64,000 nucleotides of DNA from Pirellulales bacterium (GTDB lineage Bacteria; Planctomycetota; Planctomycetia; Pirellulales; PALSA-1355), in contig JALHMI010000004.1 of the NCBI GenBank assembly GCA_022844125.1, positions 226,777-290,776 on the forward strand, written 5' to 3'. The notes beneath the pieces are model-generated. The model was not told the origin of the DNA. It searched no databases and was given only the letters and a program-made list of their open reading frames with translations. Each line of letters begins with the position of its first letter. Position 1 is the stretch's first letter. Shown here piece by piece: positions 695-53,832 of the stretch. A program made the translations under genes and the position numbers.

Positions 695-3600
695 CTAGAC
701 AAACCACGGTGTTCGCTCCAATACCGGATGCAACTGAAACGGCTCTCGCTGCCGTAGGAACGCCGCCGTAAGGTACGCGATGTTCCTAGCGTACTTTGTC
801 GTGATCGGTTCTGCGGTGAATGAATCTGTCGAAGCCCAATTCAATTTCGTGAGATTCAGCACCTGTAAGGCTAAAGTCCGCGCTTCGCACGGCAGCGGAT
901 CAGTGGCGCCAGCCCGGTAATGGTCCGCAGATACTTCTAACGGTTGCGGCGTGCCAAGAGCTTTGCGGTAAGCGTTGTACCCGGTGGTCGACAACAACAG
1001 TCGCCGACGAGAAATTGCCACGAAGCTGCCTCGCTGAACGCTGCCATCAGTCTCGGGGCGCGAATCGAACAGTCTAAAATTGTTGTGCTCGTTGATCCAG
1101 ACGAAAAACACGGAGGCATCTGGCGCAATGCTCCGAACGCCCGACAAGATCGCCATGTAGTCATCCTTCGAGATTCGCACCGCATGATGAAACACCAGAT
1201 TCGGCGCTGCGGGCAGGGAATGGTCACGCTTCAGGCGTTCCAGGGCTGATCGTGACAGCGTCGCCAGATTCTCGCTGCGTTTCGTGAAGTCAAACGCTGT
1301 TGTGTTTCCCGCGTAGAACTCCCACTTTCCGTAGCTATTGAAGACGTTCGCAAAACCGAGGATTCGTTGCCCGTCCCTGGATTGCGTATACGACAAACCC
1401 ACAAAGAAATCGGCATCAGGGATGTTCTCAGGCAGCACCCAGGGGGTTACACCGCACTTCGCGATGATGTTAAGCGACAGGTTAAGATCCTTCCAATCTG
1501 GATTGCGGAGCGTACCAGTATCGATCATTTGGCAAGGGACTCCTGCCTCCAGAAGCCGACGTTTGACGACGAAGTAAGGGGAGGAAGCGTCGTCCATCGA
1601 GTATCCCGCCTCCGGCGTGTAAGCCAGAAACAGTCTGTTCAGTTTGTCGTTCCCGCACCATTCGGGATGCTCCGCGAGGAGCCGCTCGACCTCCCTATCG
1701 ACATGCTCGACGCCCTCCGTGGTCACGATCGTCGAGTAGATGAACCGAGTAGCGAAAGTGCGTTCGGCGCCGCGGTACTTGAACTTGCCGGCCTTGAGAC
1801 GCTCGATCAGCGATTCCATCTCCTGTCGCTGATTGCTCAGGCAGATAGGAACCAGTTCGATCCTGTGCTGGGCGCTATCGTAAGAGCCATACTTGGTGAT
1901 GCCTTCTCGCACGTCAGGCAGTTTTTGATGGTCTCGAAATTCGACAGCCGGTTCGTTGAGGTGCTCGACGTGGAAGGTTGCCTCTGACCTCGCCTCGAAT
2001 TCAGATAGCGCGACGGGGGTCTTCGTCATCGTCGCCTTGTACTCGCCGAAGATTACCGGGAAGATTGTGTCCGCCAACTCGTCGGCTGTCGTCTGGATTT
2101 TCTCCGCACGCTTTCGAGCCGCCCCGGTTTCCGAGGCGAGGCTGTGCTTCTTGATCGACCCGTGAAGGTCGAATGAGATACCTTCGGCCCGCACCACCGC
2201 TTCGATTTGACCAAGGGAGAGGTTCGGGATCACCCGATTCACCTGGATCCGCTTCTCCTCCTCATTGTCGAAGAAATGGATCGTTGCCCATTCCGAATCC
2301 GAAGCGACGATCCTGCCAGCTCGCCAAGCGTCGGCCTTGGCGACACAGCTTCGCCCCACGAACTCGTCAGACGTTAGTTGACGACAGGCTTCGTTCAACC
2401 TGAGAATGCTCAATACCTGGCAAGTGTAGTCCAGCACGACGTAGGCACGCCCGAACAACTCCTGAACCTGTATGCAGTATGCCGGGAAGAGTCGGATCAG
2501 CTTTTGTGCCGCTGTGGAGATCGGCAGATCAGCGCCCTTTCGATGAGCGATGATTCGGCTGAACGAGAATCGGTCGATGTACCAACCGTGAGCAGTGAGC
2601 GAGTCCCGAAGCGCCTTCGTCAACTCACCCAGCCGTAGGTGAACTTCGTCGCCGGTCGCCCTGCCAGACGCTTTTTGGACGGTGAGCAGGTAGGCGTTCA
2701 GAAACGCCGTCTTTGGAGCCTGGATACTGGCAAGGAATGCTGCCTTGCGCCCTTCGGCCTTACTCTCCAACTTGAGGATTGTCTCGTTATCCAGCAGCAC
2801 GACTGAGGGTGGAGGCAGCCGAAGCGCCACCATCTCTCTAGTCATCCGTTTAGTCCCCTCACTGAGCGCCTGGACGAACGCATTGCCCTCCGGGTCTCTC
2901 ATAAGCCTTAGCCACTCAAGCAGCTTGCGGTTGTGTGGCATAGAGGCCAGCGGCGTCGTGCCAAGGTCGAAGCGATTGGGCAGATCGACGTTCTGCTGCC
3001 GAATTCGCCCTGGATTCTTGACGATGAACGCGTCAGTATAGTGTTCGCAGTGGACTGGGTTCTTCGTTTGATAGTCGCGGTGAGCCACGGCGTTCACGAT
3101 GGCTTCGTCGACCGCAATGGTCGGAAGCTCGGGTTCCTCGGCAAAGCCGCCATCGGGTTTCCGGTGTTGCAGCCGCTCGAAGAACGAGGTTTCTCGGAGG
3201 AAAGTGCGAGCGGCCCGAATCTGCTTCGTCACCGGCCCCCGAAAGTCCTTGTCAAACGAGGGCGTGCCACGATTCTGGTAGTGGCTCGAAGGCACGACGA
3301 ACTTCAACAACCGCAGGTAGGCGTGGGAGAGAACGCGCTGCGGGTTGGATGCGAAGAAAAGGAGCCCCGGTAGCGTAAACCACTCCTCACCATTGTTGGT
3401 GACGACCGCACCGGCTTCTCGCAAGAGCCGCTCATCTGAGAAGTCTCCCGTGGCTTCCGGGTGAAACACACGCCTGAATTCGGTAACGACTTCGGCATCG
3501 AGTGCATCGGATGAGTACGAACACCAGGGCACACTGTCAAGGTCGATTAGCCCCTTGCGTAGCCGCACTTGCTCCCGGACTTCCTGACTCATGGGCAAGG

Positions 3601-4075
3601 ACTGATGCCCGTTGCGCACCCACGCCTTCGACGTCGCATCTGGAGTCTCGCAGATTGCGTTCGGCAAATAAGCCGAGTAGATAAGGCACAGTGTCCTGTC
3701 GGCTCCGCTGGCGTCCTGGCAGTGATGGCACTTCACCTCGGCGGCGTGCGTGCGGAGGAGCGTGTTGAGGTTGGTGAACGAGTTACGCTGCTCCTCACCG
3801 AGGTGGTCAATGCCGACCACCTCCCCCGTCGAGGAGATCCCGAGGACGAGCAATCCGCCCTCGACGTTGCTGTTGGCGAACGCCGAGACGGTCTTGATGA
3901 CCAGCTCTTTGACACCATCGAGAGCGCTTCGTGTGATGGGCCCATTACTGACCGGCCGACCTGCTTCTTTGCGGTCGAAGTGTTGTCCCTCGAACTCATC
4001 GTCATTTGGCTGAGTCAAAAAGCTCCACGCCGACGGCGGATCGTCAAACACTCGGCGTGGTGAGGGTCGTGACAT
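695..4075 (-). CDS. AlbA_2 (Schlafen-type) + HATPase_c_4-like N-terminal module fused to a PAZ-less MID-PIWI (prokaryotic Argonaute-like) module, apparently catalytically inactive
   Basis: This is an 1126-aa ORF. Residues about 25-130 (FEGQHFDRKE...AFANSNVEGGLLVLGISSTGEVVGI) carry an AlbA_2-type signature. Residues about 315-400 (VDEAIVNAVAHRDYQ...IVKNPGRI) look HATPase_c_4-like. Residues about 735-860 look like a Rossmann-type MID domain (SPYFVVK, VPCQMI, NIIAKCGVTPWVL). Residues about 860-1126 look PIWI-like (FFVGLSYT, LVFHHAVRIS, FFVWINEH, PITTKYARNIAYL). It starts 43 nt downstream of the helicase gene on the same strand. Confidence 0.75.
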   Translation of the reverse strand: MSRPSPRRVFDDPPSAWSFLTQPNDDEFEGQHFDRKEAGRPVSNGPITRSALDGVKELVIKTVSAFANSNVEGGLLVLGISSTGEVVGIDHLGEEQRNSFTNLNTLLRTHAAEVKCHHCQDASGADRTLCLIYSAYLPNAICETPDATSKAWVRNGHQSLPMSQEVREQVRLRKGLIDLDSVPWCSYSSDALDAEVVTEFRRVFHPEATGDFSDERLLREAGAVVTNNGEEWFTLPGLLFFASNPQRVLSHAYLRLLKFVVPSSHYQNRGTPSFDKDFRGPVTKQIRAARTFLRETSFFERLQHRKPDGGFAEEPELPTIAVDEAIVNAVAHRDYQTKNPVHCEHYTDAFIVKNPGRIRQQNVDLPNRFDLGTTPLASMPHNRKLLEWLRLMRDPEGNAFVQALSEGTKRMTREMVALRLPPPSVVLLDNETILKLESKAEGRKAAFLASIQAPKTAFLNAYLLTVQKASGRATGDEVHLRLGELTKALRDSLTAHGWYIDRFSFSRIIAHRKGADLPISTAAQKLIRLFPAYCIQVQELFGRAYVVLDYTCQVLSILRLNEACRQLTSDEFVGRSCVAKADAWRAGRIVASDSEWATIHFFDNEEEKRIQVNRVIPNLSLGQIEAVVRAEGISFDLHGSIKKHSLASETGAARKRAEKIQTTADELADTIFPVIFGEYKATMTKTPVALSEFEARSEATFHVEHLNEPAVEFRDHQKLPDVREGITKYGSYDSAQHRIELVPICLSNQRQEMESLIERLKAGKFKYRGAERTFATRFIYSTIVTTEGVEHVDREVERLLAEHPEWCGNDKLNRLFLAYTPEAGYSMDDASSPYFVVKRRLLEAGVPCQMIDTGTLRNPDWKDLNLSLNIIAKCGVTPWVLPENIPDADFFVGLSYTQSRDGQRILGFANVFNSYGKWEFYAGNTTAFDFTKRSENLATLSRSALERLKRDHSLPAAPNLVFHHAVRISKDDYMAILSGVRSIAPDASVFFVWINEHNNFRLFDSRPETDGSVQRGSFVAISRRRLLLSTTGYNAYRKALGTPQPLEVSADHYRAGATDPLPCEARTLALQVLNLTKLNWASTDSFTAEPITTKYARNIAYLTAAFLRQREPFQLHPVLERTPWFV

Positions 4076-4118
4076 ATCTCTGCATTAGCAGCGAACTGGC
4101 TGCGTTACTATGGCACTG

Positions 4119-6674
4119 TTAGGTCGGATTGAACGGGACCAGGTACTCGTCAGCCAATGAACTTGGAATCAACCGCGTTTTCGCGAGTTGCTTTTCGCAT
4201 CGGACAACCAATTGCGTAGCTTCGAGCTGCGATCGGCACAGCTCCTCAAGCAACGCTCTCGTGTCGGCAACAAGCCGTTTCAAATTGTCAAAGGTTAAAG
4301 CTTTTGTGTCGCTTGCCACTGTGCTCCGCGTAACCGTCGCGTTTGGATGCACAGAAACGCGCACGCATTTCAATTTAGGATACGTGCTTCTAAACCATTC
4401 GGCAGCATGTAAAAGCTGGCCGTGCTCTTCGCGCGTGAGGGCATTATCGGCCTTCTTTCTGCTCTTTGCTTCAATTACTAGCCCGTAAGCATCATTCAGC
4501 AGCCACAGCACGTCGGGCCCCTTCGGGTCCGTCTGCTCGGGACGCTCTCCAATGAATCCAAGGAATCCAGCGACATCCGCGAGTGCCTGTTCGAATTGAT
4601 TGGCAGATGCTTCTGCGACAAGATGCGACGTGATTTCGTCAAACTCAGCAAGCACGCCCCGGCGGTTCGCGAACTCACAAATCCGTTGAACAATCGCTTC
4701 CGATTGGCGGCCAGGCAAGGTCAATGGTTCGTATGGCGCAACTACCTTCGGTCGAGGCAATCCACGGTTCGCTGCAAAGGCACTCTGCTGCAGTTTTAAT
4801 GCAAGATCCGACTGACCCCAATGGTGGGCCGCCGATGCCGCCATTTGCAACAGCCAGCCCTTCGTCTTGCGGTCTAAAGCTGGGCGCTCGTCACAATAAC
4901 TCTTGAGCTTTTCGATTGCCTTCTCGAAATAACCGTCACGGAGTAGATTAAAGGCCCGTCGTTCCAATGCAGCTTGCCTCAATGTGTCGTCGTCGGTAGT
5001 CGGGCCGGCGACCGTGTCGGCGAGTGTTTCTGCGTGGAACTGAGTCCACTCTCTATCTCGATCGAGACATCGCTGCATTGTCTCGGCCAGATCTTTGCGA
5101 CTGACGACACTGCGGCTGATCTCAGCCCCCATTTCCAGTTGCGCTCGCGTGCTGTTGGTCAGGAGCTTTAGGTTGCTCGACCGACTGATCCAAGCGATGA
5201 GGTCTTTGCCTGTCATTGCAACGATGCAGTAATCATTGGAGCCGCGGGCGCCTCGTCCGATGCCTTGCTCGATCCGCTGGGCAAGTTCGCTATTGAGCGA
5301 AGTCCCGCCGAGAAAGACATTCGCACGGTACAGGTCATATTCGCTAGCTCCTCGCGGCAGTCCAGACATGATGAGCAAGCGGCAAGCGTCGCCAGGGAGG
5401 TCGATGCCGTCATAGCGGTTGGCGAAAACAAATGGTCCCAGTGACTCGCCCGACTGGAGTTTCTCGACGGCCTCTGAGACTTGCTCGGTCTTGTTTGGGA
5501 ACGTGGCGATAGCCTTCCACGCTTCGGCAGCGTGTTGTGAGGGCACCAATACGACTGCTCCCTTTTTCTTTTTCTCGACTACCCACGTTGCAAGTCTCCG
5601 AACGGTATCGTCCACATCAGCTTCCAGGGTCATCAACTCGGGCGCGAGAATCATGCGTTCACTTACGCCGGCGAGGGAAGTCGAATATATAGGCTTGGCG
5701 ATAGAGTCGGGTCGCGCGTCGAAGGTGCGGACAAGCGTACTATCATCACCAATCGTGGCTGACATGTAGATGCGCCGGGGACACTCCGCGAACGTGGGAA
5801 TCGCATCGACTAGCGGGAAGACGGGCGTAATCACGAATGCCTGCCGGCTGATGAGGCATTGGCAATAGCCCAGCGCATCACGCAGAAACATCCAGGGAAA
5901 CTTGTACTGTGTTTGGGCTCCTTTTAGGTATTCCTGTACCTGCAGGAGCCTCTGTGTCCAGGCCCAGTAGGGCACTTCTAGCACCGACCAATCGCCGCCG
6001 GTTACTACATCGTCAAAGGTTCCCAGTCGGTCGATCTCTTTAAAATCGTTCCGGAACGTGTTCGTAAGGAACGCATATCCTTCGTTGTCTTTGTCCTTCC
6101 GCACGGAAAGCGTAAACTGCTCGCGCACGATAGAGAACGACGCGTGCGCATCATCGAGAATCATCGCTGCCGCATGTACAATTTCGCGCGTCCCATCCCG
6201 CGTGCCGAAACGGCTCAGACCGTTGAACAGCGCATGATAGCTGCAAATGAGGATGCTGCGTCCAGAAAGGAACTCGTCCGGAAAATCAGCATTTGACTCG
6301 TAAGGTACGGCACGAATGCCATACTCCTGCGCCTTGGCAACGGTTTGAGCTACGAGCTGATTAGTAGGGGAAAGGTAGATGACCGGCTCGTTCTTCTCAT
6401 TCAGCGTCGACTGGCCGACCAGCAGGCCGACGAGCGTCTTTCCACCTCCAGTGTGCAGCTTTACCACAAGGTCATTTTCGTCTCGGCGGGCAAACCAGTC
6501 CGACAGCACCTGCGCCTGGCTTGTGTAAAGATCGTTGATGCCTGGAGGCTTAGGCAACCTTCGGAAGATCTCTACAGGATCAATGACGGCGCTGCCGGCT
6601 TTCCGGGCGCGCAGCTTTTTGAAATCGACCATCGGAACATCTCCGCTCAATGCCAAGCCTAACCATTTGCGCAT
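4119..6674 (-). CDS. SF2 helicase (DinG/Rad3-like) with a C-terminal PD-(D/E)xK nuclease-like domain
   Basis: This is an 851-aa ORF. It has a Walker A motif HTGGGKT (aa 75-80), a DEAH variant ILDDAH (aa 172-177) and a motif VI-like RIEQGIGRGARGSNDY. The C-terminus reads GPDVLWLLNDAYGLVIEAKSRKK, giving a D721...E735-x-K737 restriction-endonuclease-fold signature. The start could instead be the internal MVDFKK at 6632. Confidence 0.75.
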   Translation of the reverse strand: MRKWLGLALSGDVPMVDFKKLRARKAGSAVIDPVEIFRRLPKPPGINDLYTSQAQVLSDWFARRDENDLVVKLHTGGGKTLVGLLVGQSTLNEKNEPVIYLSPTNQLVAQTVAKAQEYGIRAVPYESNADFPDEFLSGRSILICSYHALFNGLSRFGTRDGTREIVHAAAMILDDAHASFSIVREQFTLSVRKDKDNEGYAFLTNTFRNDFKEIDRLGTFDDVVTGGDWSVLEVPYWAWTQRLLQVQEYLKGAQTQYKFPWMFLRDALGYCQCLISRQAFVITPVFPLVDAIPTFAECPRRIYMSATIGDDSTLVRTFDARPDSIAKPIYSTSLAGVSERMILAPELMTLEADVDDTVRRLATWVVEKKKKGAVVLVPSQHAAEAWKAIATFPNKTEQVSEAVEKLQSGESLGPFVFANRYDGIDLPGDACRLLIMSGLPRGASEYDLYRANVFLGGTSLNSELAQRIEQGIGRGARGSNDYCIVAMTGKDLIAWISRSSNLKLLTNSTRAQLEMGAEISRSVVSRKDLAETMQRCLDRDREWTQFHAETLADTVAGPTTDDDTLRQAALERRAFNLLRDGYFEKAIEKLKSYCDERPALDRKTKGWLLQMAASAAHHWGQSDLALKLQQSAFAANRGLPRPKVVAPYEPLTLPGRQSEAIVQRICEFANRRGVLAEFDEITSHLVAEASANQFEQALADVAGFLGFIGERPEQTDPKGPDVLWLLNDAYGLVIEAKSRKKADNALTREEHGQLLHAAEWFRSTYPKLKCVRVSVHPNATVTRSTVASDTKALTFDNLKRLVADTRALLEELCRSQLEATQLVVRCEKQLAKTRLIPSSLADEYLVPFNPT

Positions 6675-7057: not shown

Positions 7058-7591
7058 TCACCCCATAGCCGCTCTAATGTTGTTCAAGAGAAAGAACAGG
7101 CAACCATTCGGAAATGGACTTCGGTAACCAGCCTCGCTGTCCAGAATGAACGCCGCGATACACGTCATCTCCCAACCCGCGATCTCATCGCCTGGCCATT
7201 TTGGATTCGTCAGCGCCGCGATATCGTGCTCATTCCCGTATTCTCTTACCCGCTCGATATCGGGTGAGCAAAAGGCATCAAACTGCGGGTTCGCCCAAGA
7301 CCACAGCCAAGTCCCTGAGGCGCCAGAAACCGAACCGACGACTATGCAGTCGGCCTCGATTTTCCGAATGCCATTGTCCGACCACCAGAATCGGCTGCTC
7401 GGAATGTCGTAATCGTAGTCCTGGAACTTGTCGAGGCCGAACTGTTCGCTCGCCGTTCTATTTCGCTCCCGCAGGAATTCAGTTGCTTCTTCGGCGAGCT
7501 TTCGAAACTCGGAGCCGTTCATAGAATAGTCCCCTGTGCATTCTCCGCGTCGAGTGATCTCCGCACCGCGCTCCAGTATCCCACCGGCCAA
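7058..7591 (-). CDS. Conserved hypothetical protein (resembles the DUF6882 family from memory)
   Basis: This is a 177-aa ORF. A more likely start is MNGSEFRKLAEE at 7522. The motif GTWLWSWANP is typical of a widespread uncharacterised family. No function is inferred. Confidence 0.5.
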   Translation of the reverse strand: MAGGILERGAEITRRGECTGDYSMNGSEFRKLAEEATEFLRERNRTASEQFGLDKFQDYDYDIPSSRFWWSDNGIRKIEADCIVVGSVSGASGTWLWSWANPQFDAFCSPDIERVREYGNEHDIAALTNPKWPGDEIAGWEMTCIAAFILDSEAGYRSPFPNGCLFFLLNNIRAAMG

Positions 7592-8097
7592 TTTGATTTC
7601 TGCTGAAGCAATCTCACGAACCGAGCTCGAAACTCAACGAACCCGATTATATCTAGCGAATAAGTATAAGAGACACGACACAACTGAGAGCACACGCTCC
7701 ATGCGACGAGCTCAGCGAGTCCGGCCAAATTACGGCCTTCCTGTCTCCGACAATGTGCGGGAGACCTAACCAGCACAACTAATTGGCCACGTACGCATCG
7801 CCCAAGACAGCGCGATCTGCTTCGCCCAACAAGGCTCACCCCATGAGACGTTGGACGGCCGCCCTGCTGATGATCCGGCAAACTGGGAAGGGCATTCCGC
7901 CCAGGATAGGCGATAATTGAGCGTTGCAGGCGGTCAAGCACGGCCGACACGCCCAAAAAGCGCCGAAATGCCCTCAAAATCTGGCTCTTGTGTCCCGGAC
8001 CAGTTAGCTTGAACGGATTGCGGCGTCAGCATGTTTTGCTGGCTACTGCCGAGGGGCAGCCTGCCGGTTTCGAGTCCTCGTGCGCGTAGATTGCGCA

Positions 8098-9546
8098 ATG
8101 CACCTTGCCGAACTGCGGACATTCTTTGAAACTTCGCCGGCAGTCAGGCTGCTCCGCTCACAGAACGCGCCATTCGTCATCGACTTTTTAGAGCAGCAGT
8201 TCAAACGCGCCGGCCGTTTGTCCGTGCCGCATTCCGATTTGCACGCCTCGCTGGCCTCCTACCGCGAAGAGCTTCACAAGACCTACCCTGACGCCCTGCG
8301 GGAACGCCCCGAGGTGTACCTAGCGGCCTGGTGTGGCGCGGATACCCGGTGGCTGCACCGCTTCTTGGAAGCTGGCCGAGATGAGCCGGTTTACGAGCTG
8401 ACGCCACACTCCGAGAACGTGTTGGCCTTCCTGGATCAGGTGATCGACAACGAACTAGGCTTTGTGGGGACTGAATCACGGTTGAGGATCGTCATCGACA
8501 CGTTGGCCGATCTGGTCGTCCATGCGTTCGATGACCCCACTCGCCGGCTAGCACACCTTCGACAAGAGAAGGCCCGCATCGAGGAGGAGATCGAACGAAT
8601 CGAGAACCAAGGACAGGTCACCCGCTACCAGCCCGCCCAGATTCGCGAACGCTTCGCCACCGCGGTCACGACTCTTAAGCAACTTCAAGGGGACTTCCGG
8701 GCGGTCGAGGAGAAGTTCCGAGCCATCACGCTCCAGGTTCAGCGGCAGCAGGCAGAAGGTCTCGACACGCGCGGTGGAATCCTGGGTTTTGCCCTCGAAG
8801 CGGAGGACGTACTGAAGCGAGAAGACCAAGGAGTGAGCTTCTACGAATTCGTACGCTTCATCTTGTCCCCTGCGCAGCAGGAAAAGCTTCAGGCAATCAT
8901 CGATGAGCTTGGACGAATCGAGGAACTTCTGGAGCAGCGAGAGGGTTTTGAAACCGTGCAGCGCATGGTCCCGCTCTTACTCGAAGAGGCCGAGAAAGTC
9001 ATGCGGACCAACCAGAGGTTATCCTCGACGCTGCGCCGGCTGTTGGATCGGCGTGCCTATCAGGATCGGCAACGCGTCTCGACGCTGCTCCGCGAGATAA
9101 AGCAGGTGGCTGCGTCTCTGTGTGACGATCCGCCAACCAAAGTCGGAGCCGAGCTCGAAACGCACCTGGCCATCGCTTCGCCGCTCTCGCGCATTCTTTG
9201 GAGCGAGCCGCAGTCATTTGCTCCTCTAACGCTGGTCGAACACGTGAGCGACGAAGCTTCGCGCGTGGATGCATTCCGCAACCTGGCAACGTTCCAGCGG
9301 CTCGACTGGCGCGGCATGCGACAGCGTATCGATCGCGTTTTGATGGAGCGTGATGCGATTTCGTTGCGCGATTTCCTCACCGAACACCCGCCAAGTGGCG
9401 TCGTCGAAGTGATCGGCTATGTGCAGATCGCACGTGATGACGGTCATTTGGTCGATCCGGACGCCCCGGACCAAATCATCGTCTCTGGCGAGCATGGAAG
9501 ATGTCTCCAACTCACGGTCCCGCAAGTTCGGTTCATTGCGTCGTAA
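8098..9546 (+). CDS. jetA: Wadjet JetA (DUF3375, MksB-like kleisin component)
   Basis: The N-terminus MHLAELRTFFETSPAVRLLRSQNAPFVIDFLEQQF is typical of DUF3375. It is the first gene of a 4-gene operon with the canonical Wadjet order and sizes. I prefer the ATG at 8098 over the GTG at 8080. Confidence 0.8.
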   Translation: MHLAELRTFFETSPAVRLLRSQNAPFVIDFLEQQFKRAGRLSVPHSDLHASLASYREELHKTYPDALRERPEVYLAAWCGADTRWLHRFLEAGRDEPVYELTPHSENVLAFLDQVIDNELGFVGTESRLRIVIDTLADLVVHAFDDPTRRLAHLRQEKARIEEEIERIENQGQVTRYQPAQIRERFATAVTTLKQLQGDFRAVEEKFRAITLQVQRQQAEGLDTRGGILGFALEAEDVLKREDQGVSFYEFVRFILSPAQQEKLQAIIDELGRIEELLEQREGFETVQRMVPLLLEEAEKVMRTNQRLSSTLRRLLDRRAYQDRQRVSTLLREIKQVAASLCDDPPTKVGAELETHLAIASPLSRILWSEPQSFAPLTLVEHVSDEASRVDAFRNLATFQRLDWRGMRQRIDRVLMERDAISLRDFLTEHPPSGVVEVIGYVQIARDDGHLVDPDAPDQIIVSGEHGRCLQLTVPQVRFIAS

Positions 9547-9557
9547 AAGGAGCCTCG

Positions 9558-10181
9558 ATGTCTCACATTGCCGTCCCGGAATTTCGTGACTGGAGCATTG
9601 CGGCGGTTCGGCTTTTGCAAGGCGTCGTGTATTCCGACGACGAGAAGGCATGGAACGCAGTCTTGAGCGCTCGCTCTCAACTGGAGTCCTATGTCGCCCG
9701 ACTAGGTCTCCTCTTGGTTGTGGACGAGGCGGAGGGACTGTCCTACGTCCGACAAGCTGAACAGGACGAGCTTCCTGAGGGCTATGAGCGCTTGCCCAAG
9801 CTGTTTCACCGATCACGACTGGGCTACTGGACCACGCTGCTATGCGTCCTGCTTCGCGAGGAACTTCGCCGCTTCGAAGAAGAGGATCTGCACAACGAAC
9901 GTTGCGTGGTCGAGGTCAGCAACTTGTTCGATCAGTGGAAAGCCTTCTTCCCCACAACCTATGACGAGGTACGTCAGCGCCGCGAGCTCGATTCGGCGAT
10001 ATCGAAACTCTCCGATTTGGGCTTCGTGCGAAGATTCGGCGAGGAGCCGGAAGCGTGGGAGATTCGGCGGATCCTGAAGGCACGGCTACCGGCCAGCGAG
10101 CTAGAGAATCTGAAATCGCAGTTGCTTGCCGCCAGTGAGCGCCGAGCCACGACCGAAAAGCAGGGGGATGACTCGGCATGA
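9558..10181 (+). CDS. jetB: Wadjet JetB (DUF4194, MksE-like)
   Basis: An ATG at 9558 is preceded by aaaaggag. The sequence AAVRLLQGVVYSDDEKAWNAVL...LGLLLVVDEAEGLSYVRQ is DUF4194-like. Its stop overlaps the jetC start (ATGA at 10178-10181). Confidence 0.8.
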   Translation: MSHIAVPEFRDWSIAAVRLLQGVVYSDDEKAWNAVLSARSQLESYVARLGLLLVVDEAEGLSYVRQAEQDELPEGYERLPKLFHRSRLGYWTTLLCVLLREELRRFEEEDLHNERCVVEVSNLFDQWKAFFPTTYDEVRQRRELDSAISKLSDLGFVRRFGEEPEAWEIRRILKARLPASELENLKSQLLAASERRATTEKQGDDSA

Positions 10182-13100
10182 GCGAGCGACTGACCAACAA
10201 CGGCAAGCCATTGCCTGGCTATCGCCTAACGCGCGTGGAGCTTCTCAATTGGGGCACTTTTGACAGCACTCGTGGGCAGGTCCATGTTCTGCCGGTCCAA
10301 GGCGAGACTGCTCTCGTCATCGGCCAGAATGGCTCTGGAAAGTCCACGCTGGTCGACGCACTGTTGACGCTCCTCGTTCGTCCCGTGGTGCGAAACTACA
10401 ACGTTGCCGCTGGCGCCCACAAGCAAGAACGAGACGAGCGAAGCTACATCAAAGGTGCATTTGGTCGCTTCAGTCGAGATGAGGACAACCGGGCTGCCGT
10501 CCAGTTTCTACGCCCCCGAGCCTCCCAGCCGTCCGTGCTCCTGGCCTGTTTCTCGAACCAGCAGTCAGGCAAAACCTTCACGGTCGCGCAACTGCTCTAT
10601 CTTGACTCAGAAGGTGGCACGAAGCGGGTTTACTGCTTCGCCAGCAACGAGCGCTCCATCGCCGGGGATTTTGGCGATTTGAAAGGCGAGGAGCGAATCC
10701 GAGAACAGCTCCGACGCCGTGGGCTGCGAACGACAACAAGCTACACAGAATACCATTCGTGGTTCGCCAAGGAAACGGGTGTCCAAGCCAAAGCTATGGA
10801 CATGTTCAACCAAACCGTGGCCGTGAAAGACATCCAGAGGCTGAATGCCTTTATCCGCGACCACATGTTGGAGTCGAAGCCTTGGGGCAAGCGAGTCGAA
10901 GATCTCTTGAACCACTTCACGCAGTTGAGCGAAGCTCACAAGAGCCTCGTGGAGGCACGCAGGCAACGTGCGCTACTCGATCCGCTGGCCGAAGCAGGCG
11001 ATGCTTATCGCGAGCACGAAATGGAACTCTCGCGGCAGCAGCGGTTTCTCGACGCGACCGATTCACTCTTTCGCACTAAAACGGTTGAACTGTTCGTACC
11101 CGAGTGCCTCGAACGCCGCGCTGAACTGGATCAAGTCAAAGACCGCATTAAGCAGGCAGATCAGGATCTCGCGAAGGTCCACGAGGAGTGCCGGCGACTC
11201 AAGAATGAGATCGAACACGCCGGCGGCGAGCGACTAAAGCAGATACCGCTCCTGATCGAGAGTCACGAAGCCCAATACCTAGTGAAGCATGCTGAACGGC
11301 AGCGGTATCACGCGACGCTTCGCGATCTGGGTGTCAATGATTCGATCACCGATCAGCAGAAGCTAGATTCTGCCCGCACCAAGCTCTCGTCGCTCCTTGG
11401 AGAGTGCGATAGCCAAATCCGCGCTGCCGACGCGCGCCGCAATGACTCGGTAATCGCACGAGCCGACTCGATCGGGCGACTGACTGACGACGAACGGGAG
11501 CTTGAGGCACTATCGAAGCGGCGCGAGAACCTTCCGGAGTCGTTCGCGGAACTCAGGCGACGCATGTGTGAAGCTCTCAGGCTTCCACCGTCCGAACTTC
11601 CCTTTGCGTCGGAGCTGATTGCAGTCAGACCCGAAGAACGAACCTGGGAGTCCTCCATCGAAATGGTGTTGCATGGATTCGCTTTGAGCCTTCTGGTCCC
11701 GGAGCGGCACTATCAAGTCATCAGTCGCTACGTGGACGCCAACAAGATCACCAGCAACGGAAAGGGACAAAAGCTCGTTTATCTTCGGGTCGGTCAACGC
11801 CAGGCTCGCTCGGCTAGCAATCCGCGCCGCGACTGCTCCTTGCTGGACAAACTGACGTTTCGCGAGGGTCACGCGCTCCTGCCGTGGGTCAAAGCGGAGA
11901 TCGCGGATCGATTCGACTACCAGTGCTGTGAGACGATCGAGGAATTCCAGGCCGCGGAAGGCAGGGCACTCACCCGAGAACGGCACCTGAAGACCGGGAC
12001 TGTGCGGCACGAAAAAGATGACCGTGACCGGTCGAGCGATCCGCGGTATTTCGTGCTCGGCTGGGATAATCGCGAAAAGCGACGACTACTGGCCGAATCG
12101 GTTACACGACTTCGCAGTGAGGTGGCTGAGTTCGAGCGTGCTGTCGAGAAGCTGGACAACACACTTGCCACGCTTCGCAGTCGACAAGCCTCGGCACGCC
12201 GGGCACTGGAAATGACCGACTTCGAGTCGATCAATGCCGCGCGGCACGAGCTCGCCATCAAGGCGTTGCGAAAGGAACGCCATGCAATTGAAGAGGGAAG
12301 CGATGCCATTCGGATCCTCAATCGACGGCTAAAGGAAGAGGAATCGCGGCAATTGTCAATCACGAGGAAGCGTGACGATGCGGTCGCACGTCAACGGGAC
12401 CTTGCCAGAGACATTGAAACCGGCGAGAAAGCTGTCGCCAACGCGAAGTCCATCCTCAAATCGCGCTCTTCGCAGGGGGTGCTTGCTAAGCATAAGGAGC
12501 ACTTCTCAAGTCTAGAGGCGGAGCTTGCGCAGGAGCCCTTGACTGTCGTCAATCTGTTTGACCGCGAACGCTCTTCACTTGAAGAGCGACGTCGACTCGT
12601 CGACCGCCTCCGTGAAGAGTCCGTGCCGTTGGTCACAACGCTGCAAAAGACCATGAGCCGCTTCTTGATTGAGTTCCCGTCGGAAAAAGCCGACCTGCAA
12701 CCAGACGCTGCCTATCTGGACAGTTTCCTTGATCTCCGCGCTCATCTGGTTCGCGAGGACCTGCCGCGGCACGAGCAGCGTTTCAAGGAACGCTTGAACG
12801 AGAAGGTTACGCACGAGATCGGGCTGTTCAACGGGGCGCTCCAGACCGAGTGCGGTGAAATCAAGAAGAAGATTGAGATCCTCAATTCTTCCCTCCGTCA
12901 ACTGGAATATCGCCAGGGCACCTACATGCGGCTTGAGCCTCGGCCGGTCCATGACCGTGAAATCGACGACTTTCAGCAAGCAATGAAGGAATGTCTGGCC
13001 GGAACTTTTGAAGGCACCCTCGAAGCGGACGAGGCACGCTATCTGCGGATCGAAAAGTTGATCGTCCGGCTGCGTGAGGAACCACGGTGGAGAGACAAAG

Positions 13101-13594
13101 TCGCCGACGTGCGGCGCTGGTTTGACTTTGCCGCGCGCGAGATCGACGCCGAAAGCGGTCAGGAGCGTGCCTACTACGAAGACAGCACGGGGCAGTCGGG
13201 AGGCGAGAAGGCGAAACTGGCGTTTACGATTCTTGTCGCGGCGATCGCCTATCAGTACGACCTCGTACCCGGCCAGCCTGCCAAGGACCGGTTTCATTTC
13301 GTCGTTGTCGATGAAATGTTCTCCAAAGTCGATGACCAGTACGCCGAGTACGCGCTGGAGCTATTTCGGAAATTCGGACTGCAACTGCTGATCGTTGCTC
13401 CACTCGACGCCAAGGCACGCGTGACGGAACCTTATGTTGGTTGCTATCTCCATATCGTCAAGGACGAAAAGACGAGTCACTCCGAGATCCTCAGCATGAC
13501 GGCACACGAGTTCAAGCAGGTCGTGGAAGGGACGAACGGGCACGCCACCGCTCCATCACGAACTCGCACGGCATCGGCCGCGGCGCCGAGCTGA
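10178..13594 (+). CDS. jetC: Wadjet JetC (SMC-like ABC ATPase, MksF-like)
   Basis: This is an 1138-aa ORF. It has an N-terminal Walker A motif GQNGSGKSTLVDAL, long coiled-coil-like Glu/Arg/Leu-rich arms, a C-terminal signature QSGGEKAKLAF and a Walker B motif FVVVDEMF. Confidence 0.85.
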   Translation: MSERLTNNGKPLPGYRLTRVELLNWGTFDSTRGQVHVLPVQGETALVIGQNGSGKSTLVDALLTLLVRPVVRNYNVAAGAHKQERDERSYIKGAFGRFSRDEDNRAAVQFLRPRASQPSVLLACFSNQQSGKTFTVAQLLYLDSEGGTKRVYCFASNERSIAGDFGDLKGEERIREQLRRRGLRTTTSYTEYHSWFAKETGVQAKAMDMFNQTVAVKDIQRLNAFIRDHMLESKPWGKRVEDLLNHFTQLSEAHKSLVEARRQRALLDPLAEAGDAYREHEMELSRQQRFLDATDSLFRTKTVELFVPECLERRAELDQVKDRIKQADQDLAKVHEECRRLKNEIEHAGGERLKQIPLLIESHEAQYLVKHAERQRYHATLRDLGVNDSITDQQKLDSARTKLSSLLGECDSQIRAADARRNDSVIARADSIGRLTDDERELEALSKRRENLPESFAELRRRMCEALRLPPSELPFASELIAVRPEERTWESSIEMVLHGFALSLLVPERHYQVISRYVDANKITSNGKGQKLVYLRVGQRQARSASNPRRDCSLLDKLTFREGHALLPWVKAEIADRFDYQCCETIEEFQAAEGRALTRERHLKTGTVRHEKDDRDRSSDPRYFVLGWDNREKRRLLAESVTRLRSEVAEFERAVEKLDNTLATLRSRQASARRALEMTDFESINAARHELAIKALRKERHAIEEGSDAIRILNRRLKEEESRQLSITRKRDDAVARQRDLARDIETGEKAVANAKSILKSRSSQGVLAKHKEHFSSLEAELAQEPLTVVNLFDRERSSLEERRRLVDRLREESVPLVTTLQKTMSRFLIEFPSEKADLQPDAAYLDSFLDLRAHLVREDLPRHEQRFKERLNEKVTHEIGLFNGALQTECGEIKKKIEILNSSLRQLEYRQGTYMRLEPRPVHDREIDDFQQAMKECLAGTFEGTLEADEARYLRIEKLIVRLREEPRWRDKVADVRRWFDFAAREIDAESGQERAYYEDSTGQSGGEKAKLAFTILVAAIAYQYDLVPGQPAKDRFHFVVVDEMFSKVDDQYAEYALELFRKFGLQLLIVAPLDAKARVTEPYVGCYLHIVKDEKTSHSEILSMTAHEFKQVVEGTNGHATAPSRTRTASAAAPS

Positions 13595-13639
13595 CCGGCA
13601 AGAGACAGACTGCCAAGCATTTGCCGAAGGCCATCAGCC

Positions 13640-14833
13640 ATGATTGATCCGGTGGAGATTCGCCGCAAAGCCGAGTCCCTCTATCGCGAGTACGTGCAGG
13701 CGTGGCTTGCTGCCGAGGACGAGAGTTTTTTCCCGCGAGAAATCCGCTGTCGAAAGAAGCCGGCTTCCAACGATCTGGCTGAGGCGAGCCGCGCGGTTCG
13801 TGTGCTACGCGCCGGATCGAAAGAGTCTACGGGCTTCGGCTATTCGGTCCAGTGGCGAGAAGTCCGCAGCCGCACATTCGGCCGAAACGAGTTTCCGGAA
13901 CGTGTCTTGTTTCACACGGCAGAGGATCTTTTGCGCTTCTTGGAGCGCTGCGACGAATTTGCCACGCTTGTCGCTGCTGCCACGAAACTGCGAAGTCGCC
14001 TACCTGTTCTAGAGCAATGGTTGCGGGCCAACCCGGAAACTCTTCTCGCACTCGCACCAGATCTGGATGGTCTCTTGGAAGTCGTGTCGTGGTTCGTGCA
14101 GCACCCGCGACCGGGGATCTTCGCTCGCGAGCTACCACTCGCCGTCGACACGAAGTTCATCGAGCGCCACGAGCGAATTCTTCGCAAGTGGCTGGATATC
14201 GTGCTCCCTCCCCATACGATTCGTTCCGACGAGGAATACTTTGAACGGCGCTTCGGGCTGCGTTATGCCGAACCGCATTTGATGTTGCGGTTTCTGGATG
14301 CTGGATTACAGGCCGCCGCCGGCATTCCCTTCGATGAGCTCTCATTGCCGCTTCGAACTCTCGATCAGCTATCCTGCCCGGTAACGACGGTCTTCATCGT
14401 CGAGAATAAGGTGAATCTGCTGACACTGCCGCCTATCGAGGGGGCGATTGCCTTGGGCGGGCTCGGGAATGGAGTGTCGCTCCTCCGATATGTCGCATGG
14501 CTGCAAACTGTCCAAATCACGTATTGGGGGGACATCGACGTTGAGGGACTCGCGATTCTTTCGATGCTGCGAGCTTCGTTTCCCCACGTCCAAAGCGTCA
14601 TGATGGACCAATCCACCATCGACCGCTACGAACGGCTCCTGGTGCCTGGGACCGCGCGCATTCTGGACGTGCCACCGTATCTCAATGCGGCGGAACACGA
14701 GCTCTTCCTTGCATGCCGAAGCAGGAATATTCGCCTGGAGCAGGAGCGTATTCCGCAGGCGGATGTTGTGGCGAAATTGTCGGAAAGCGCCCGGCCCCCT
14801 TCGACTCCATCCCCCGTGCCATCAGCTTCCTAA
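13640..14833 (+). CDS. jetD: Wadjet JetD (DUF3322/DUF2220, Toprim-like nuclease subunit)
   Basis: This is a 397-aa ORF. The motifs FIVENKVNLLTLPP and YWGDIDVEGLAIL match the Toprim-like core of JetD. Confidence 0.8.
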   Translation: MIDPVEIRRKAESLYREYVQAWLAAEDESFFPREIRCRKKPASNDLAEASRAVRVLRAGSKESTGFGYSVQWREVRSRTFGRNEFPERVLFHTAEDLLRFLERCDEFATLVAAATKLRSRLPVLEQWLRANPETLLALAPDLDGLLEVVSWFVQHPRPGIFARELPLAVDTKFIERHERILRKWLDIVLPPHTIRSDEEYFERRFGLRYAEPHLMLRFLDAGLQAAAGIPFDELSLPLRTLDQLSCPVTTVFIVENKVNLLTLPPIEGAIALGGLGNGVSLLRYVAWLQTVQITYWGDIDVEGLAILSMLRASFPHVQSVMMDQSTIDRYERLLVPGTARILDVPPYLNAAEHELFLACRSRNIRLEQERIPQADVVAKLSESARPPSTPSPVPSAS

Positions 14834-15497: not shown

Positions 15498-16526
15498 GTG
15501 CAGAATCTAACGCGTGCGAGTGCGGAGCTCTTCCGCAGGACAGAAGACGAGTGTTTCGAGTCGCTCTCGGCACTCTCTGTCCATCTGCGGGCAAAAAAGG
15601 AGCGGTCCGAGGATCGTTGGCAGCCGCCAACGCAGTTGGAGGCCTCGCCGATTGACGGCGGGCTACTTCTCAACGCCGGAAGCGACGGTGCGTTCCTAAT
15701 GAACGACTGGAGCTTTGGCCAGCTATGCAAGCTGGCCGGGGTGGGGAAGGAGACCGTCAATCGACTGTCTCCCGAGACGGCATCGCAAGTCTTCGCGGAA
15801 ACGCTTCCACGCGGCCAGAAGCCGCTTCAGCTTTTTACCGAGGGAGAGGATCTACGTTCCATCCACGGGACGAGCTACACGCGGCTCTACGATGCAGATC
15901 TTGTCGCCATGCTCCAGGAGTTCGCGGTGGACTTTGAGCCGCCGCAAAAGGGCTTTAACGGAGCGACCGGGCTTTATGCGGGAGAGCAGGACTTGTTCTG
16001 CTTTCTCATCGACCCGGCCGGCTGGACCGAAATCGGCGGAGAAGCTTTCGCTCCCGGATTCTTTATCTGGAATTCGGAAGTGGGGCGCCGCTCGCTGGGC
16101 ATCCAAACATTCTGGTTTCAGGCCGTATGCCAGAACCATATTGTCTGGGATGCTGTGGATGTCTTCGAGTTCACTCGAAAACACACAGCGAATGTCCATG
16201 AGTCACTCCGCGAGATCCGCCGGATCATTGAGGCATTGGTCGCCAAACGCGACGAACGTCGAGACGGCTTTGCGAAGGTGATCCAACGGGCGATGGAAGA
16301 GAAGCTTGGCGACGACGCCGAGGAAGTGATGAAGGTTCTTCAAAAGAACGGCATCACCCGAAGCGCCGCGAAGCAAGCCTTGGAAATCGCCGCGCGGCAG
16401 GGGAGGTTCACCATCTTTACGCTGGTGGACTCCCTGACTCGCATCGCTCGCGAAACCAATAACGCGGGCGATCGCACGGATGCGGACGAGAAAGCTTCAA
16501 AGCTTCTCTCGCTCGCGGCAGCGTAG
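15498..16526 (+). CDS. DUF932-family protein (typical plasmid/ICE/phage cargo)
   Basis: This is a 342-aa ORF. The motif FIWNSEVGRRSLGIQTFWFQAVCQNHIVW matches the NS..G / VC.N core I associate with DUF932. Confidence 0.65.
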   Translation: MQNLTRASAELFRRTEDECFESLSALSVHLRAKKERSEDRWQPPTQLEASPIDGGLLLNAGSDGAFLMNDWSFGQLCKLAGVGKETVNRLSPETASQVFAETLPRGQKPLQLFTEGEDLRSIHGTSYTRLYDADLVAMLQEFAVDFEPPQKGFNGATGLYAGEQDLFCFLIDPAGWTEIGGEAFAPGFFIWNSEVGRRSLGIQTFWFQAVCQNHIVWDAVDVFEFTRKHTANVHESLREIRRIIEALVAKRDERRDGFAKVIQRAMEEKLGDDAEEVMKVLQKNGITRSAAKQALEIAARQGRFTIFTLVDSLTRIARETNNAGDRTDADEKASKLLSLAAA

Positions 16527-30505: not shown

Positions 30506-33500
30506 CTACGAACTCGCGACTACCGAGAATCCCACTTTGAATGTCTCCATCAGGTAGTTTTCGGTGACTGCCAGCAGTTGCAGCTGTTCTGATGAGATGG
30601 CCGCCTTGGACACACCTGGTTGAACGATGACGATGCCAAGAGTAACGGGGCAAAGGCGGCTTTTTTCGATGATTCGGTCGAGATCGTCTTCAGTGCCGAC
30701 CTCGAAGCGTGACTGCTTACGGGCTTTTTCTCTGCGCATCAGATGCAAGAAGAGTTCCGTCGGTTGCTGCATCCAACGTACGCTTCGCTGTGCTTGTCCG
30801 CAGAGTTCGTAAAGGTCCTTGACCCTTGCACCCGCCTGCGGACCACCAGAGAACTTGCAATGCCAGAACTCAACATCAATGGATGACTCTGTTTCCCGGA
30901 TCCCGACGACATCGGCGGCCTCGCCGCTTCCATCGTCGTCCAAGATTGCTGTAAAGTCTCTGGCCTTTAGCTCTTCGATCACTCGAAACTGGATTGTGCC
31001 CGATTTTCGCGTTGGGCCTTGCGACTCCCGCCGAATGTCGACGCCCGTCCAATTCCACACTTCGATGCGGCTTTTGGGAAACGGTGGAGGCAGATGGCGC
31101 AACTCGACCAGCTCGTTTCCGCGCAGCGATGAGCCATCAGCAAACCAGATTGCAGGCGGCGTCGCCGTTAGAAACTCAGCGAGCGTCGTCTCATGTCCAC
31201 CATGCGTAATCTTTGCATCGCCTGCGCTTCGCTGCGTGAACACAAAATCGACTTCCTCCCCGCTCCCAGTGAGCTCAAGTTCGAAAACGGCACGATGCTT
31301 GTCACCTGCAATGGCAACGCGTAACGGCCCCTCCTCTGAAGGATCCTCTATCTCAATGTCCACTTCGTGGAGATAGAATGACTCTGCGCCCAACTGGAAC
31401 TGGACTGCGGTTTCGCTCTCGGTGTAGAACGCTTCTGGCCATTCCGCCGCGATGGGCATGCCTGCCGGGCGCGTGGAAACCATTCTAGGTTGCAGTGTCC
31501 CACGAAGGACCTGTTCGGGATCAAGCGACTCGTCTAAAAGCTTGGTTCCTATAGACCTGCACCATCGAGTGAATTCACGAAGGTTGGTGGTTTGGCGCGA
31601 CCAGATACGACCCTTGTAGGAGCAGCCGATGCTCGTTCGGTGTCCGTCTTCAAAACCCGTTCCGAAGAGATTCGATTTGATCGCCTTGCGTTTCTGTGCC
31701 TCAGAGAGGCCTCCTTCCACGTCGGAGCCGGCCCGCATCGTAAAACGTATGAGCCGACCGAGCGTTTCTATCAGCCCAACATTCTGAAGTCTTAGGCGGT
31801 TCACAGTGGCAAGGCAGCGAAAGATCTCGGCGCCGCGAATAGGGGTCGCCTTTCCTGCAACCGCCTTCGCCAGATCGCGAAAAAACCCCTTGTTGCTCGA
31901 ATTGTGGATAAAGAGGAGCTGTCGTTCCTGATGCCAGAACAGAATGTAGAGCTGCCAGTCCCACGAATAGATCTCGTCAACTCGTGCCCATTCAATCGGC
32001 GCGCGCCTGGCAGTTAAGATGACCAGCGTATTCTCCGCTGGATTCACGTCATGATAGACGCGATCCAGTGTGTCGAACCCGGGAATGCCCTTTGAGAACT
32101 CCTCCGGATTCCAGTTTTCGCATTCGGTTCTGTAGGCGACCGTGCTCATCGCTGGGCGAACGTTATGAAGCGACACATCGTCAGGGAAGCTCTTGAATCC
32201 CGCGATGAATTCGCCAAGCTCGATCTCGCCCTTAATCGCCTTATCGCTGAAGTGCGGAAGCAGTGCATTCCAATCGCCATCACGCCTGTAGAGTTTGCGT
32301 AGTTCGTCCCCTACTTCTACGTCGGCAATATTTGCGATAACTGTCGCGTTACCCAGGCCAGGCTTTGCTCGCGTGAATCGGCCTGCAAGCTGCAATGTCA
32401 CTGGCAAGCTGCGTCGAACGTCGTGAAACGCTGCGATCTTGAGTTCAGGAAGGTCGAACCCTTCGCCAAGCATGTCAACGCATATGACGATCCTCGACTT
32501 ACCGGACAAAATCTGCTCCCGTATCCGAGCCCGCTCGTGCATTGACTTGATGCCGGTGTGGATCTGGACCGGCTTGAATTCTGTGTGCTTGCTATAAAGT
32601 CTGAATACCTCTTCGGCTCGCCGGACGCCACTAACTCGGGCCATTAGAATGTGCCCTTTCGAGAGATCGGCACGCAACTGCGCAACCGCCGCCTCAGCGA
32701 TAGCTGCATCACGTTTTTTTGGATCGAACTCTCGAACTGGCTTGAAATCGATCGGACGAAAATAGCCATCCTGTTGGGCCTGCCGCAGTGAATAGACGAA
32801 GATCACTTGCTCCCCAACCGGCCGCTCATCATTGCGGTAAGGAGTTGCGGTGAATTGTAGGATGCGTGTCTCGCTGAAGCATTTCTTGAAGGCCTCCCAG
32901 GTAGGCGCCCCAACGTGATGCGCTTCGTCGATGAAGAGGTGCGAGCAGTGCGCCGCCATCGCCTCCTGGAGATCCTCGGAACACTGACCGATACCGGCCA
33001 TTGTCGCGACGATCACGTTGCAACTTTCAAATAGTGCGTCAACGTCGCTCTTTGTTTTCGGCCGTCGTTTCAATATGCCGACAATCGGATTACGCGCCCC
33101 TGCCGCAATAACGCCGCATTGACGAAGAATGCCGAGCGATAAGAATTTGTCGGCGATCTGACTCCGCAGTGCATCGGTGGGAACCACGACTAGCAGCCGC
33201 TCGCATTGCGCCGCAACAAGAATCGCAAGCATCGCCTCCGTTTTTCCCGTTCCGGTTGGCATTACGATCGTTGCAGGGTTTTTATGAACCGAGAAATGTC
33301 CCAGGGCGGCATGAACTGCGCCAATTTGTGGAGGTCGCAGCCCAGGAATGTCCGCAGCCTGATCTTCCTTCTGGTACTCAAACCTCCCCGGCCAGGACTT
33401 GCGCGCTTCTGCCACCAACTCCTCCAACGACGGAGTCGCGGCCGGCAGGGATTCCAGAGCAGGATGCCGAACCCATGTGGCCGCGGAAAGTTCAATGCGG

Positions 33501-36682: not shown

Positions 36683-36685
36683 GAG

Positions 36686-39444: not shown

Positions 39445-39448
39445 GTAT

Positions 39449-40198: not shown

Positions 40199-40211
40199 GC
40201 GAGCCTCCGAG

Positions 40212-53790: not shown

Positions 53791-53832
53791 CGGATCTTGC
53801 GCTATTGCTGTTCTCAGAGGGAGGGGTCAATC

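Follow-up and report, generated by a model that had tools for sequence, protein, structure and literature searches.

In a stretch of 64,000 nucleotides (nt) from the genome of a Pirellulales bacterium (GenBank assembly GCA_022844125.1, contig JALHMI010000004.1, positions 226,777 to 290,776; the whole stretch is here called the window), two genes on the minus strand follow each other closely. One encodes a helicase-nuclease and the other a prokaryotic Argonaute (pAgo) with a Schlafen-type head. Very probably these are two autonomous and already described single-gene anti-phage systems, Hna and SLFN-pAgo, that adjoin each other within a defence island and do not form a two-part machine. Their adjacency is in all likelihood a lineage-specific product of defence-island shuffling, and neither gene would need the other. 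The analysis of the window covered family membership by sequence, the state of the catalytic and ligand-binding motifs, the inactivity of the PIWI domain and the lack of co-conservation of the two genes.

The initial annotation described two same-strand open reading frames (ORFs) 43 nt apart, and both the coordinates and the gap were confirmed. The minus-strand ORFs are located at 4119-6674 (851 aa) and 695-4075 (1126 aa), and the spacer between the stop codon of the helicase gene and the start codon of the pAgo gene, read directly from the sequence, occupies 4076-4118. The GC content was even over the region (approximately 0.54-0.60). The probable translation start of the helicase is M15 (nt 6632) and not the beginning of the longest ORF, since the homologues are 835-840 aa long and begin with MVDFKK. 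The upstream gene is therefore given as 4119-6632 (minus strand, 837 aa), and the residue numbers below follow the 851-aa ORF.

The upstream gene is, by its sequence, an orthologue of Hna, a family of helicase-nucleases in abortive infection. This is concluded because the match to Hna in the PDB was collinear over the full length, because K737 of the window protein corresponds to K729 of Hna and because the motifs are conserved. With phmmer, the window helicase matched S. meliloti Hna (PDB 10uj_A/9yhn/9ykj, 845 aa) with E = 1.3e-125 over residues 1-801 versus 1-809. A family profile made from 12 Hna members found the same Hna sequence in the PDB (E = 1.1e-163, residues 1-837 versus 1-843). The PDB entries 9YHN, 9YKJ and 10UJ belong to the paper describing Hna (PMC13381803). 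The unnamed PADLOC candidate PDC-S28 also matched the helicase end to end (925 bits), and judged from these matches the named system Hna and PDC-S28 are one family. In the literature, the term 'PDC-S28' was found only in a census paper.

The DinG-like superfamily 2 (SF2) helicase and the C-terminal restriction endonuclease (REase) fold proposed in the initial annotation were both recovered, and the motifs quoted there (HTGGGKT, ILDDAH, QGIGRGARG and D721...E735-A-K737) are all present. The DinG/XPD-like helicase core, made up of HEL1 and HEL2, is encoded at 5214-6530 (minus strand) and harbours the Walker A motif GGGKT (K79), motif II DDAH (174-177) and motif VI QGIGRGAR (470-477). Pfam matches on the 851-aa protein were DEAD (53-212), ResIII and Helicase_C_2 (366-487). 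Among 120 Hna homologues, the GKT of Walker A, the DDAH and motif VI (QGxGRxxR) were invariant or nearly so. The core of the C-terminal PD-(D/E)XK nuclease is encoded at 4275-4607 (minus strand) and holds D721, E735 and K737, each of which was conserved in all 120 homologues. In the alignment K737 coincided with K729 of S. meliloti Hna, and a K729A substitution abolished the exonuclease activity of that protein (PMC13381803).

The biochemical activities and triggers of both proteins were drawn from the literature. Hna was reported as a single-effector abortive-infection system found in approximately 2% of genomes, with N-terminal SF2 helicase domains of the DinG/XPD-like type without an Fe-S cluster and a C-terminal PD-(D/E)XK nuclease, and is called ExoDinG-like in the same paper (PMC13381803). 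It is a 3'-5' exonuclease active on single-stranded DNA (ssDNA) whose ATP-bound dimer is auto-inhibited, and a phage single-stranded-DNA-binding protein (SSB) releases it (PMC13381803). By homology, the window Hna would be a 3'-5' ssDNA exonuclease kept as an ATP-bound, auto-inhibited dimer, which a phage SSB would free to bring about abortive infection.

The downstream gene (695-4075, minus strand) encodes an extra-long pAgo of the long-B type with an N-terminal Schlafen-GHKL head, termed 'Schlatpase'. Judged from its architecture and motifs, the protein fits the SLFN-pAgo clade, the clade of RzAgo. The PADLOC pAgo model PDLC02394 spanned residues 3-1126 (model positions 1-1121 of 1121, 1667.5 bits), and the fused architecture was thus already contained in a 2023 defence database, as this full-length model exists. 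Fusions of long-B pAgos to Schlafen AlbA_2 domains had been noted even before (Ryazansky et al. 2018). A survey for the fused architecture that the initial annotation had pointed out yielded, in addition to PDLC02394, at least 502 homologues at E<=1e-10 in a metagenomic set of 5.8 billion proteins, and the best 120 of these were mostly about 1125 aa long. Many proteins of this family are labelled 'predicted HTH transcriptional regulator' by JGI.

In the initial annotation, this architecture was not known to have been characterised experimentally. This statement is outdated, as the helicase-nuclease is treated in the Hna paper (PMC13381803) and the SLFN-GHKL-pAgo in a May 2026 preprint (bioRxiv 10.64898/2026.05.29.728809). 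According to the preprint, which covers 78 proteins, the SLFN-pAgos form one monophyletic group among the long-B pAgos; they are 1071-1187 aa long, have an N-terminal Schlafen domain and a GHKL ATPase, lack the PIWI catalytic tetrad and are without a conserved partner gene. RzAgo, from Runella zeae (WP_028663822.1), uses small-RNA guides against DNA targets, and its gene alone gave phage protection in a heterologous host. Its tetramerisation is driven by ATP through the GHKL domain, in which E314 and N318 coordinate ATP and Mg, and its guide-induced filaments are inactive. The Schlafen domain, with an E(x)4(D/E)xK motif and a SAFAN box, cuts tRNA once the target binds and is inactive in the D32A mutant, and the MID pocket for the 5'-end of the guide was mutated in RzAgo-YK (bioRxiv 10.64898/2026.05.29.728809).

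The corresponding elements were found in the window protein. The Schlafen (AlbA_2) nuclease domain is encoded at 3590-3985 (minus strand) and contains E29-x4-D34-x-K36 (E29-GQHF-D34-R-K36) as well as the SAFAN box (64-68). These positions were highly conserved among 118 family members (E29 in 115, D or E at 34 in 116, K36 in 115 and the SAFAN residues in 115-118). The GHKL (Bergerat-fold) ATPase domain is encoded at 2786-3178 (minus strand). Its E324 and N328, located in DEAIVN, were invariant in 118 of 118, and their E-x3-N spacing is that of E314/N318 in RzAgo. The head with AlbA_2 and HATPase_c_4-like signatures in the initial annotation was upheld. Pfam detected AlbA_2 (PF04326, SLFN_AlbA_2, residues 31-162, E = 6.6e-9). 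The HATPase_c_4 match (PF13749, residues 340-427) reached 16.5 bits and so stayed below the cutoff of 26, but PF13749 is among the precomputed annotations of several homologues.

The middle region, residues ~450-702 (1970-2728, minus strand), as a whole corresponds to the N/L1/PAZ/L2 part of the long-B core and is covered by the long-B model PDLC02379 (pAgo_II), which matched residues 485-1125 (model positions 77-723 of 724, E = 7.7e-38). The MID-PIWI module follows at 695-1969 (minus strand). The C-terminal inactive MID-PIWI of the initial annotation was upheld, although the Pfam Piwi model gave no match on the 1126-aa protein and the PIWI fold was instead recovered with PADLOC and PDB. The PADLOC model PDLC02436 matched residues 703-1109 (E = 4.6e-76), and solved Argonautes were matched as well, AaAgo with E = 6e-11 and, with the family profile, RsAgo with 3e-11 and short pAgos with approximately 1e-10 to 1e-11. 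The MID pocket for the guide 5'-end is intact; Y834, K838, Q849 and K873 align with the YKQK positions of AaAgo (1yvu) and were invariant in all 118 family members. The PIWI domain is catalytically dead because S895, A965 and R1097 replace the catalytic Asp residues of AaAgo (D502, D571 and D683, respectively, in the alignment to 1yvu). In the 118 homologues, the first catalytic position was occupied by Ser (n = 117) or Ala (n = 1) and the second by Ser (n = 109), Ala (n = 8) or Pro (n = 1).

The homologue RzAgo suggests that a small guide RNA would be bound by the inactive MID-PIWI core of long-B type, with the RNA 5'-end in the YKQK pocket, and that this core would sense complementary invader DNA. 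Tetramerisation would be driven by the GHKL ATPase, and target recognition would free the N-terminal Schlafen nuclease, so that tRNAs are cut and abortive infection follows.

The co-conservation of the two genes was examined in both directions. On the pAgo side, 76 SLFN-pAgo loci from one-genome-per-species contigs of many phyla, with up to 10 kb flank each, and five closer metagenomic relatives gave 81 non-self loci, 74 of which had at least 2.6 kb flank on a side. On the Hna side, 80 metagenomic loci and the nearest relative likewise gave 81 non-self loci, of which 51 had at least 3.4 kb flank on a side. A tblastn search of the 76 loci with the window Hna matched nothing but a 152-aa fragment in locus L006. 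An intact Hna was present in none of the 81 SLFN-pAgo loci, and no SLFN-pAgo was found in any of the 81 Hna loci. Even the five pAgo relatives at 90, 89, 88, 84 and 83% identity had no Hna nearby. Their neighbours were instead a 316-aa ORF of unknown function, alone or together with an HNH protein, BREX/Shedu-like genes, a pair of OLD and UvrD like that of Gabija, or a type I restriction-modification (R-M) system with a reverse transcriptase. A transposase comes after the nearest relative of the window Hna (75% identity). The identity profiles of the two genes disagree, with many pAgo relatives at 80-90% and the next Hna at only 75%. Unbiased clustering of neighbouring ORFs revealed no recurrent family in the 80 Hna loci, and for SLFN-pAgo no general partner, only a cassette in one subclade. 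No link between Hna and Argonaute was found reported in the literature.

The initial annotation read the pair as a member or cousin of the DdmDE/PIWI-RE class. In such a model the two genes would be obligate components, and the inactive Argonaute would find invader DNA and recruit or load the helicase-nuclease that degrades it. The shared strand, the 43-nt gap and the lack of a terminator consensus between the genes speak for such a system. So does the domain logic, which resembles DdmD (helicase with PD-(D/E)XK) and DdmE (inactive pAgo). Orthogroups of DEAD-box helicases and PD-(D/E)XK nucleases are moreover enriched near pAgos (Ryazansky 2018). These points are outweighed by the absence of the pair from the 81 and 81 loci, including those of the pAgo relatives that share 83-90% identity. 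Hna, the family to which the helicase belongs, is reported to act as a single effector, and the pAgo has a Schlafen nuclease effector of its own in a clade for which the preprint reports no conserved partner (bioRxiv 10.64898/2026.05.29.728809) and whose member RzAgo works alone. The searches also showed no similarity to DdmD or DdmE. Neither was among the PADLOC matches of the two window proteins at E<=1, nor among the PDB matches of the pAgo family profile at E<=1 or of the helicase profile at E<=0.01, in libraries which we take to contain DdmDE. The two-component model was accordingly rejected on the two-way co-conservation test and the lack of homology, and we consider it extremely unlikely; co-conservation of the two genes, looked for from both sides, was absent outside the window's own clusters, an outcome that the initial annotation itself had named as refuting its model.

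A subclade of the SLFN-pAgos does have conserved neighbours. A same-strand cassette of a GmrSD-like gene (646 aa), a type III-like methyltransferase (932-969 aa), SLFN-pAgo and a UvrD-like helicase (691 aa), the genes being spaced approximately 45 nt apart, was seen at L004 (3525-15495), in L051 (identical), L012 and L006 and partly in L013 and L060. The identities of the cassette partners were 57-80% across metagenome-assembled genomes (MAGs) of Planctomycetota, Binatia and Arenicellales. This GmrSD/methyltransferase/UvrD cassette is real co-conservation and qualifies the statement in the preprint that there is no conserved linkage (bioRxiv 10.64898/2026.05.29.728809). In that subclade the tight upstream slot (~45 nt) is filled by the type III-like methyltransferase and not by Hna. 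The tight spacing in the window consequently does not help the case for an operon, as the methyltransferase occupies the same slot in other loci.

In the closest pAgo relatives (88-90% identity), the upstream same-strand gene was the 316-aa ORF, which had no Pfam match and occurred with or without HNH (L161 2217-3167, L079 8235-9185 and L162 6246-7196). The same relatives share a divergent pair made up of a helix-turn-helix protein (136 aa) and a protein of 359-374 aa. In the window, the slot of the 316-aa ORF is taken by Hna.

Some observations weigh against two independent systems. The two genes share a strand and are separated by 43 nt in which neither a terminator nor a promoter could be recognised. 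Since the 43-nt spacer is without a promoter or terminator consensus, co-transcription of Hna and SLFN-pAgo in the window organism is plausible and, judged from the spacer, possible; the scan gave the same counts as in shuffled sequence and is in itself uninformative. The pair recurs on four contigs, all of them in the window's own clusters of at least 90% identity. A truncated Hna remnant is located at 1194-1721 of L006 (minus strand of the locus; a Binatia MAG), on the opposite strand and approximately 8 kb from the SLFN-pAgo; it consists of a 176-aa open stretch including MVDFKK, with 49% identity to the first 156 residues in tblastn. Finally, Hna abuts other modules of the Argonaute type in three of the 81 Hna loci. 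At L123 (6408-12511), a long-B pAgo (764 aa) and a Helical-REase (419 aa) are followed by Hna on the same strand after a gap of 19 nt. At L134 (9962-16101), Hna is followed by a Mrr-TIR-APAZ protein (630 aa) and a short pAgo. At L156 (7758-14767), Hna comes after BrxL and before a tRNA_edit protein, and a Schlafen-GHKL protein that stands alone (520 aa) is located two genes away from Hna.

These observations would be accommodated if the two systems, each autonomous, were co-transcribed and synergistic in the window lineage, and if Hna had a mild general affinity for neighbours of the Argonaute type. As an ssDNA exonuclease or translocase, Hna might then act on phage replication intermediates and thereby uncover or create DNA that the RNA-guided pAgo can target, or the ssDNA/SSB stage of infection might be a shared cue for both systems. 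Such facultative cooperation would draw on the possible co-transcription, on the three different Argonaute or Schlatpase modules beside Hna, one of them at 19 nt on the same strand, and on the remnant in L006. Other SLFN-pAgo loci also often adjoin some helicase, UvrD-like or GajB-like. The frequency of three in 81 is however that of unrelated defence families beside Hna, and each of the Argonaute-type modules involved is a complete known system by itself. Furthermore, no Hna subclade tracks with pAgos, and the nearest Hna (75% identity) has none. Synergy is general, and not specific, among defence systems that lie next to each other, which also counts against a particular tie between these two. 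Facultative cooperation is thus judged unlikely and, as the comparison is one of raw counts, a small probability was kept for it.

A wider version, that Hna and SLFN-pAgo are co-transcribed and cooperate in the window lineage and that ssDNA exonuclease/helicases of the Hna type serve repeatedly as accessory partners to several sensors of the Argonaute type (SLFN-pAgo in the window, long-B pAgo with REase at L123 and TIR-APAZ with short pAgo at L134), appears very unlikely. Proteins of the Hna type might in that case process invader DNA into the form sensed by the Argonaute, or might couple two triggers of abortive infection. If the synergy were true, a helicase-nuclease accessory layer would be added to Argonaute immunity. 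Co-transcription, even if real, would not imply functional dependence.

To assess the general neighbourhood of Hna, the ORFs closest to it at 70 loci, 127 in number, were compared with PADLOC. Matches were obtained to 397 families, none of which was found in more than three ORFs; Septu/PARIS-type ATPases and Mokosh were present in three each, Hachiman and methyltransferases in two each. A specific enrichment of Argonaute modules beside Hna was therefore rejected, three of 81 being the level of these families. By these raw counts, the adjacency to Argonautes is at the ordinary level of a defence island, as no family beside Hna exceeds three ORFs.

Defence islands turn over fast, and the truncated Hna in L006 shows such a gene in decay, which would agree with one or both window genes being non-functional remnants in a degenerating island. 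Both ORFs are, however, of full length and collinear with their families, and every catalytic or ligand-binding motif examined was intact, so that decay of either gene is hardly conceivable.

The window is a multi-system defence island. Approximately 430 nt upstream of Hna lies a gene for a DUF6882 protein (7058-7591, minus strand; a 177-aa ORF, 154 aa as called elsewhere). The DUF6882-Hna arrangement was also observed on the same-cluster contigs L077 and L078, and DUF6882 did not recur next to other Hna genes. A complete anti-plasmid Wadjet system JetABCD (8080-14833, plus strand) is divergent from the Hna/pAgo pair and consists of JetA (DUF3375, 488 aa), JetB (DUF4194, 226 aa), the SMC-like JetC (1138 aa) and JetD (397 aa). 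Farther on, the markers of defence or mobile elements include a DUF932 gene (15498-16526, plus strand), a SNF2/ResIII helicase of 1089 aa (30506-33775, minus strand) and a type I R-M system on the minus strand within 35648-42569 (HsdS 36686-37840, HsdM 37837-39444 and HsdR 40212-42569). These are followed by a Strawberry-notch-like protein of 1507 aa with AAA_34 and Helicase_C_4 (44392-48915, minus strand) and by ParA (53620-54693, plus strand). A tRNA scan found no tRNA gene in the window that could have served as an integration site. Possibly the window in its entirety belongs to an integrative or conjugative element.

For both genes, the structure and mechanism of the family are already published, and the window genes are new members of these families. 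As the families are published and the adjacency is not conserved, the pair carries little weight as a discovery. The practical value lies in the linking of PDC-S28 to Hna and in an SLFN-pAgo family several-fold larger than the 78 proteins of the preprint. The pair also illustrates clearly how two defence-island genes set tightly on the same strand can look like a two-component system.

Compared with S. meliloti Hna, the window protein is collinear over the full length (837 versus 845 aa) with the same HEL1-HEL2-NUC order, has SF2 motifs of the DinG-like kind, no Fe-S cluster region and a PD-(D/E)XK D...ExK signature with the catalytic Lys, and is, like Hna, without a conserved partner gene. 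It differs in being a divergent orthologue from a different host, in the Walker A sequence (GGGKT versus GQGKT) and in its position 43 nt upstream of an SLFN-pAgo gene. The downstream protein shares with the RzAgo clade a length (1126 aa) within the range of 1071-1187, the order of SLFN (AlbA_2), GHKL and long-B core, the E(x)4(D/E)xK, SAFAN and GHKL E-x3-N motifs, the MID pocket, the lack of a PIWI tetrad and the location in a defence island. With at least 502 members, its family is much larger than the set in the preprint.

The likeness to DdmDE, the plasmid elimination system of Vibrio cholerae, is superficial and one of gene content only, namely an SF2 helicase with PD-(D/E)XK beside an inactive pAgo-like protein. 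DdmE recruits DdmD using DNA guides, whereas RzAgo uses RNA guides and cleaves tRNA. The window genes are, unlike those of DdmDE, not co-conserved, and the window pAgo carries its own intact Schlafen nuclease effector and a GHKL ATPase, in a clade in which RzAgo defends alone. The PIWI-RE family, with its DinG-type helicase and REase-fold neighbours, was reportedly described by Burroughs and colleagues in 2013. It resembles the pair in having an inactive PIWI-type protein near a DinG-like helicase. The best matches of the window pAgo were, however, long-B proteins (RsAgo and PADLOC pAgo_II) rather than a separate clade of PIWI-RE type. Its linkage with the helicase is not conserved, and the nuclease is fused to the window helicase and not encoded by a third gene; no separate REase gene was found between or beside the pair. 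Parallels in logic are the long-B pAgo systems with an effector (BPAN, pAgo with Helical-REase) and the short pAgo systems (SPARTA/SPARSA and Mrr-TIR-APAZ), in which an inactive Argonaute is the guide-dependent sensor and a toxic effector leads to abortive infection. The MID-PIWI module of the window protein is related to that of these systems, and an example of each type adjoins Hna, the long-B one at L123 and the short one at L134. Unlike them, the window pAgo has the SLFN RNase and the ATPase switch fused to its N-terminus and not encoded by a partner gene.

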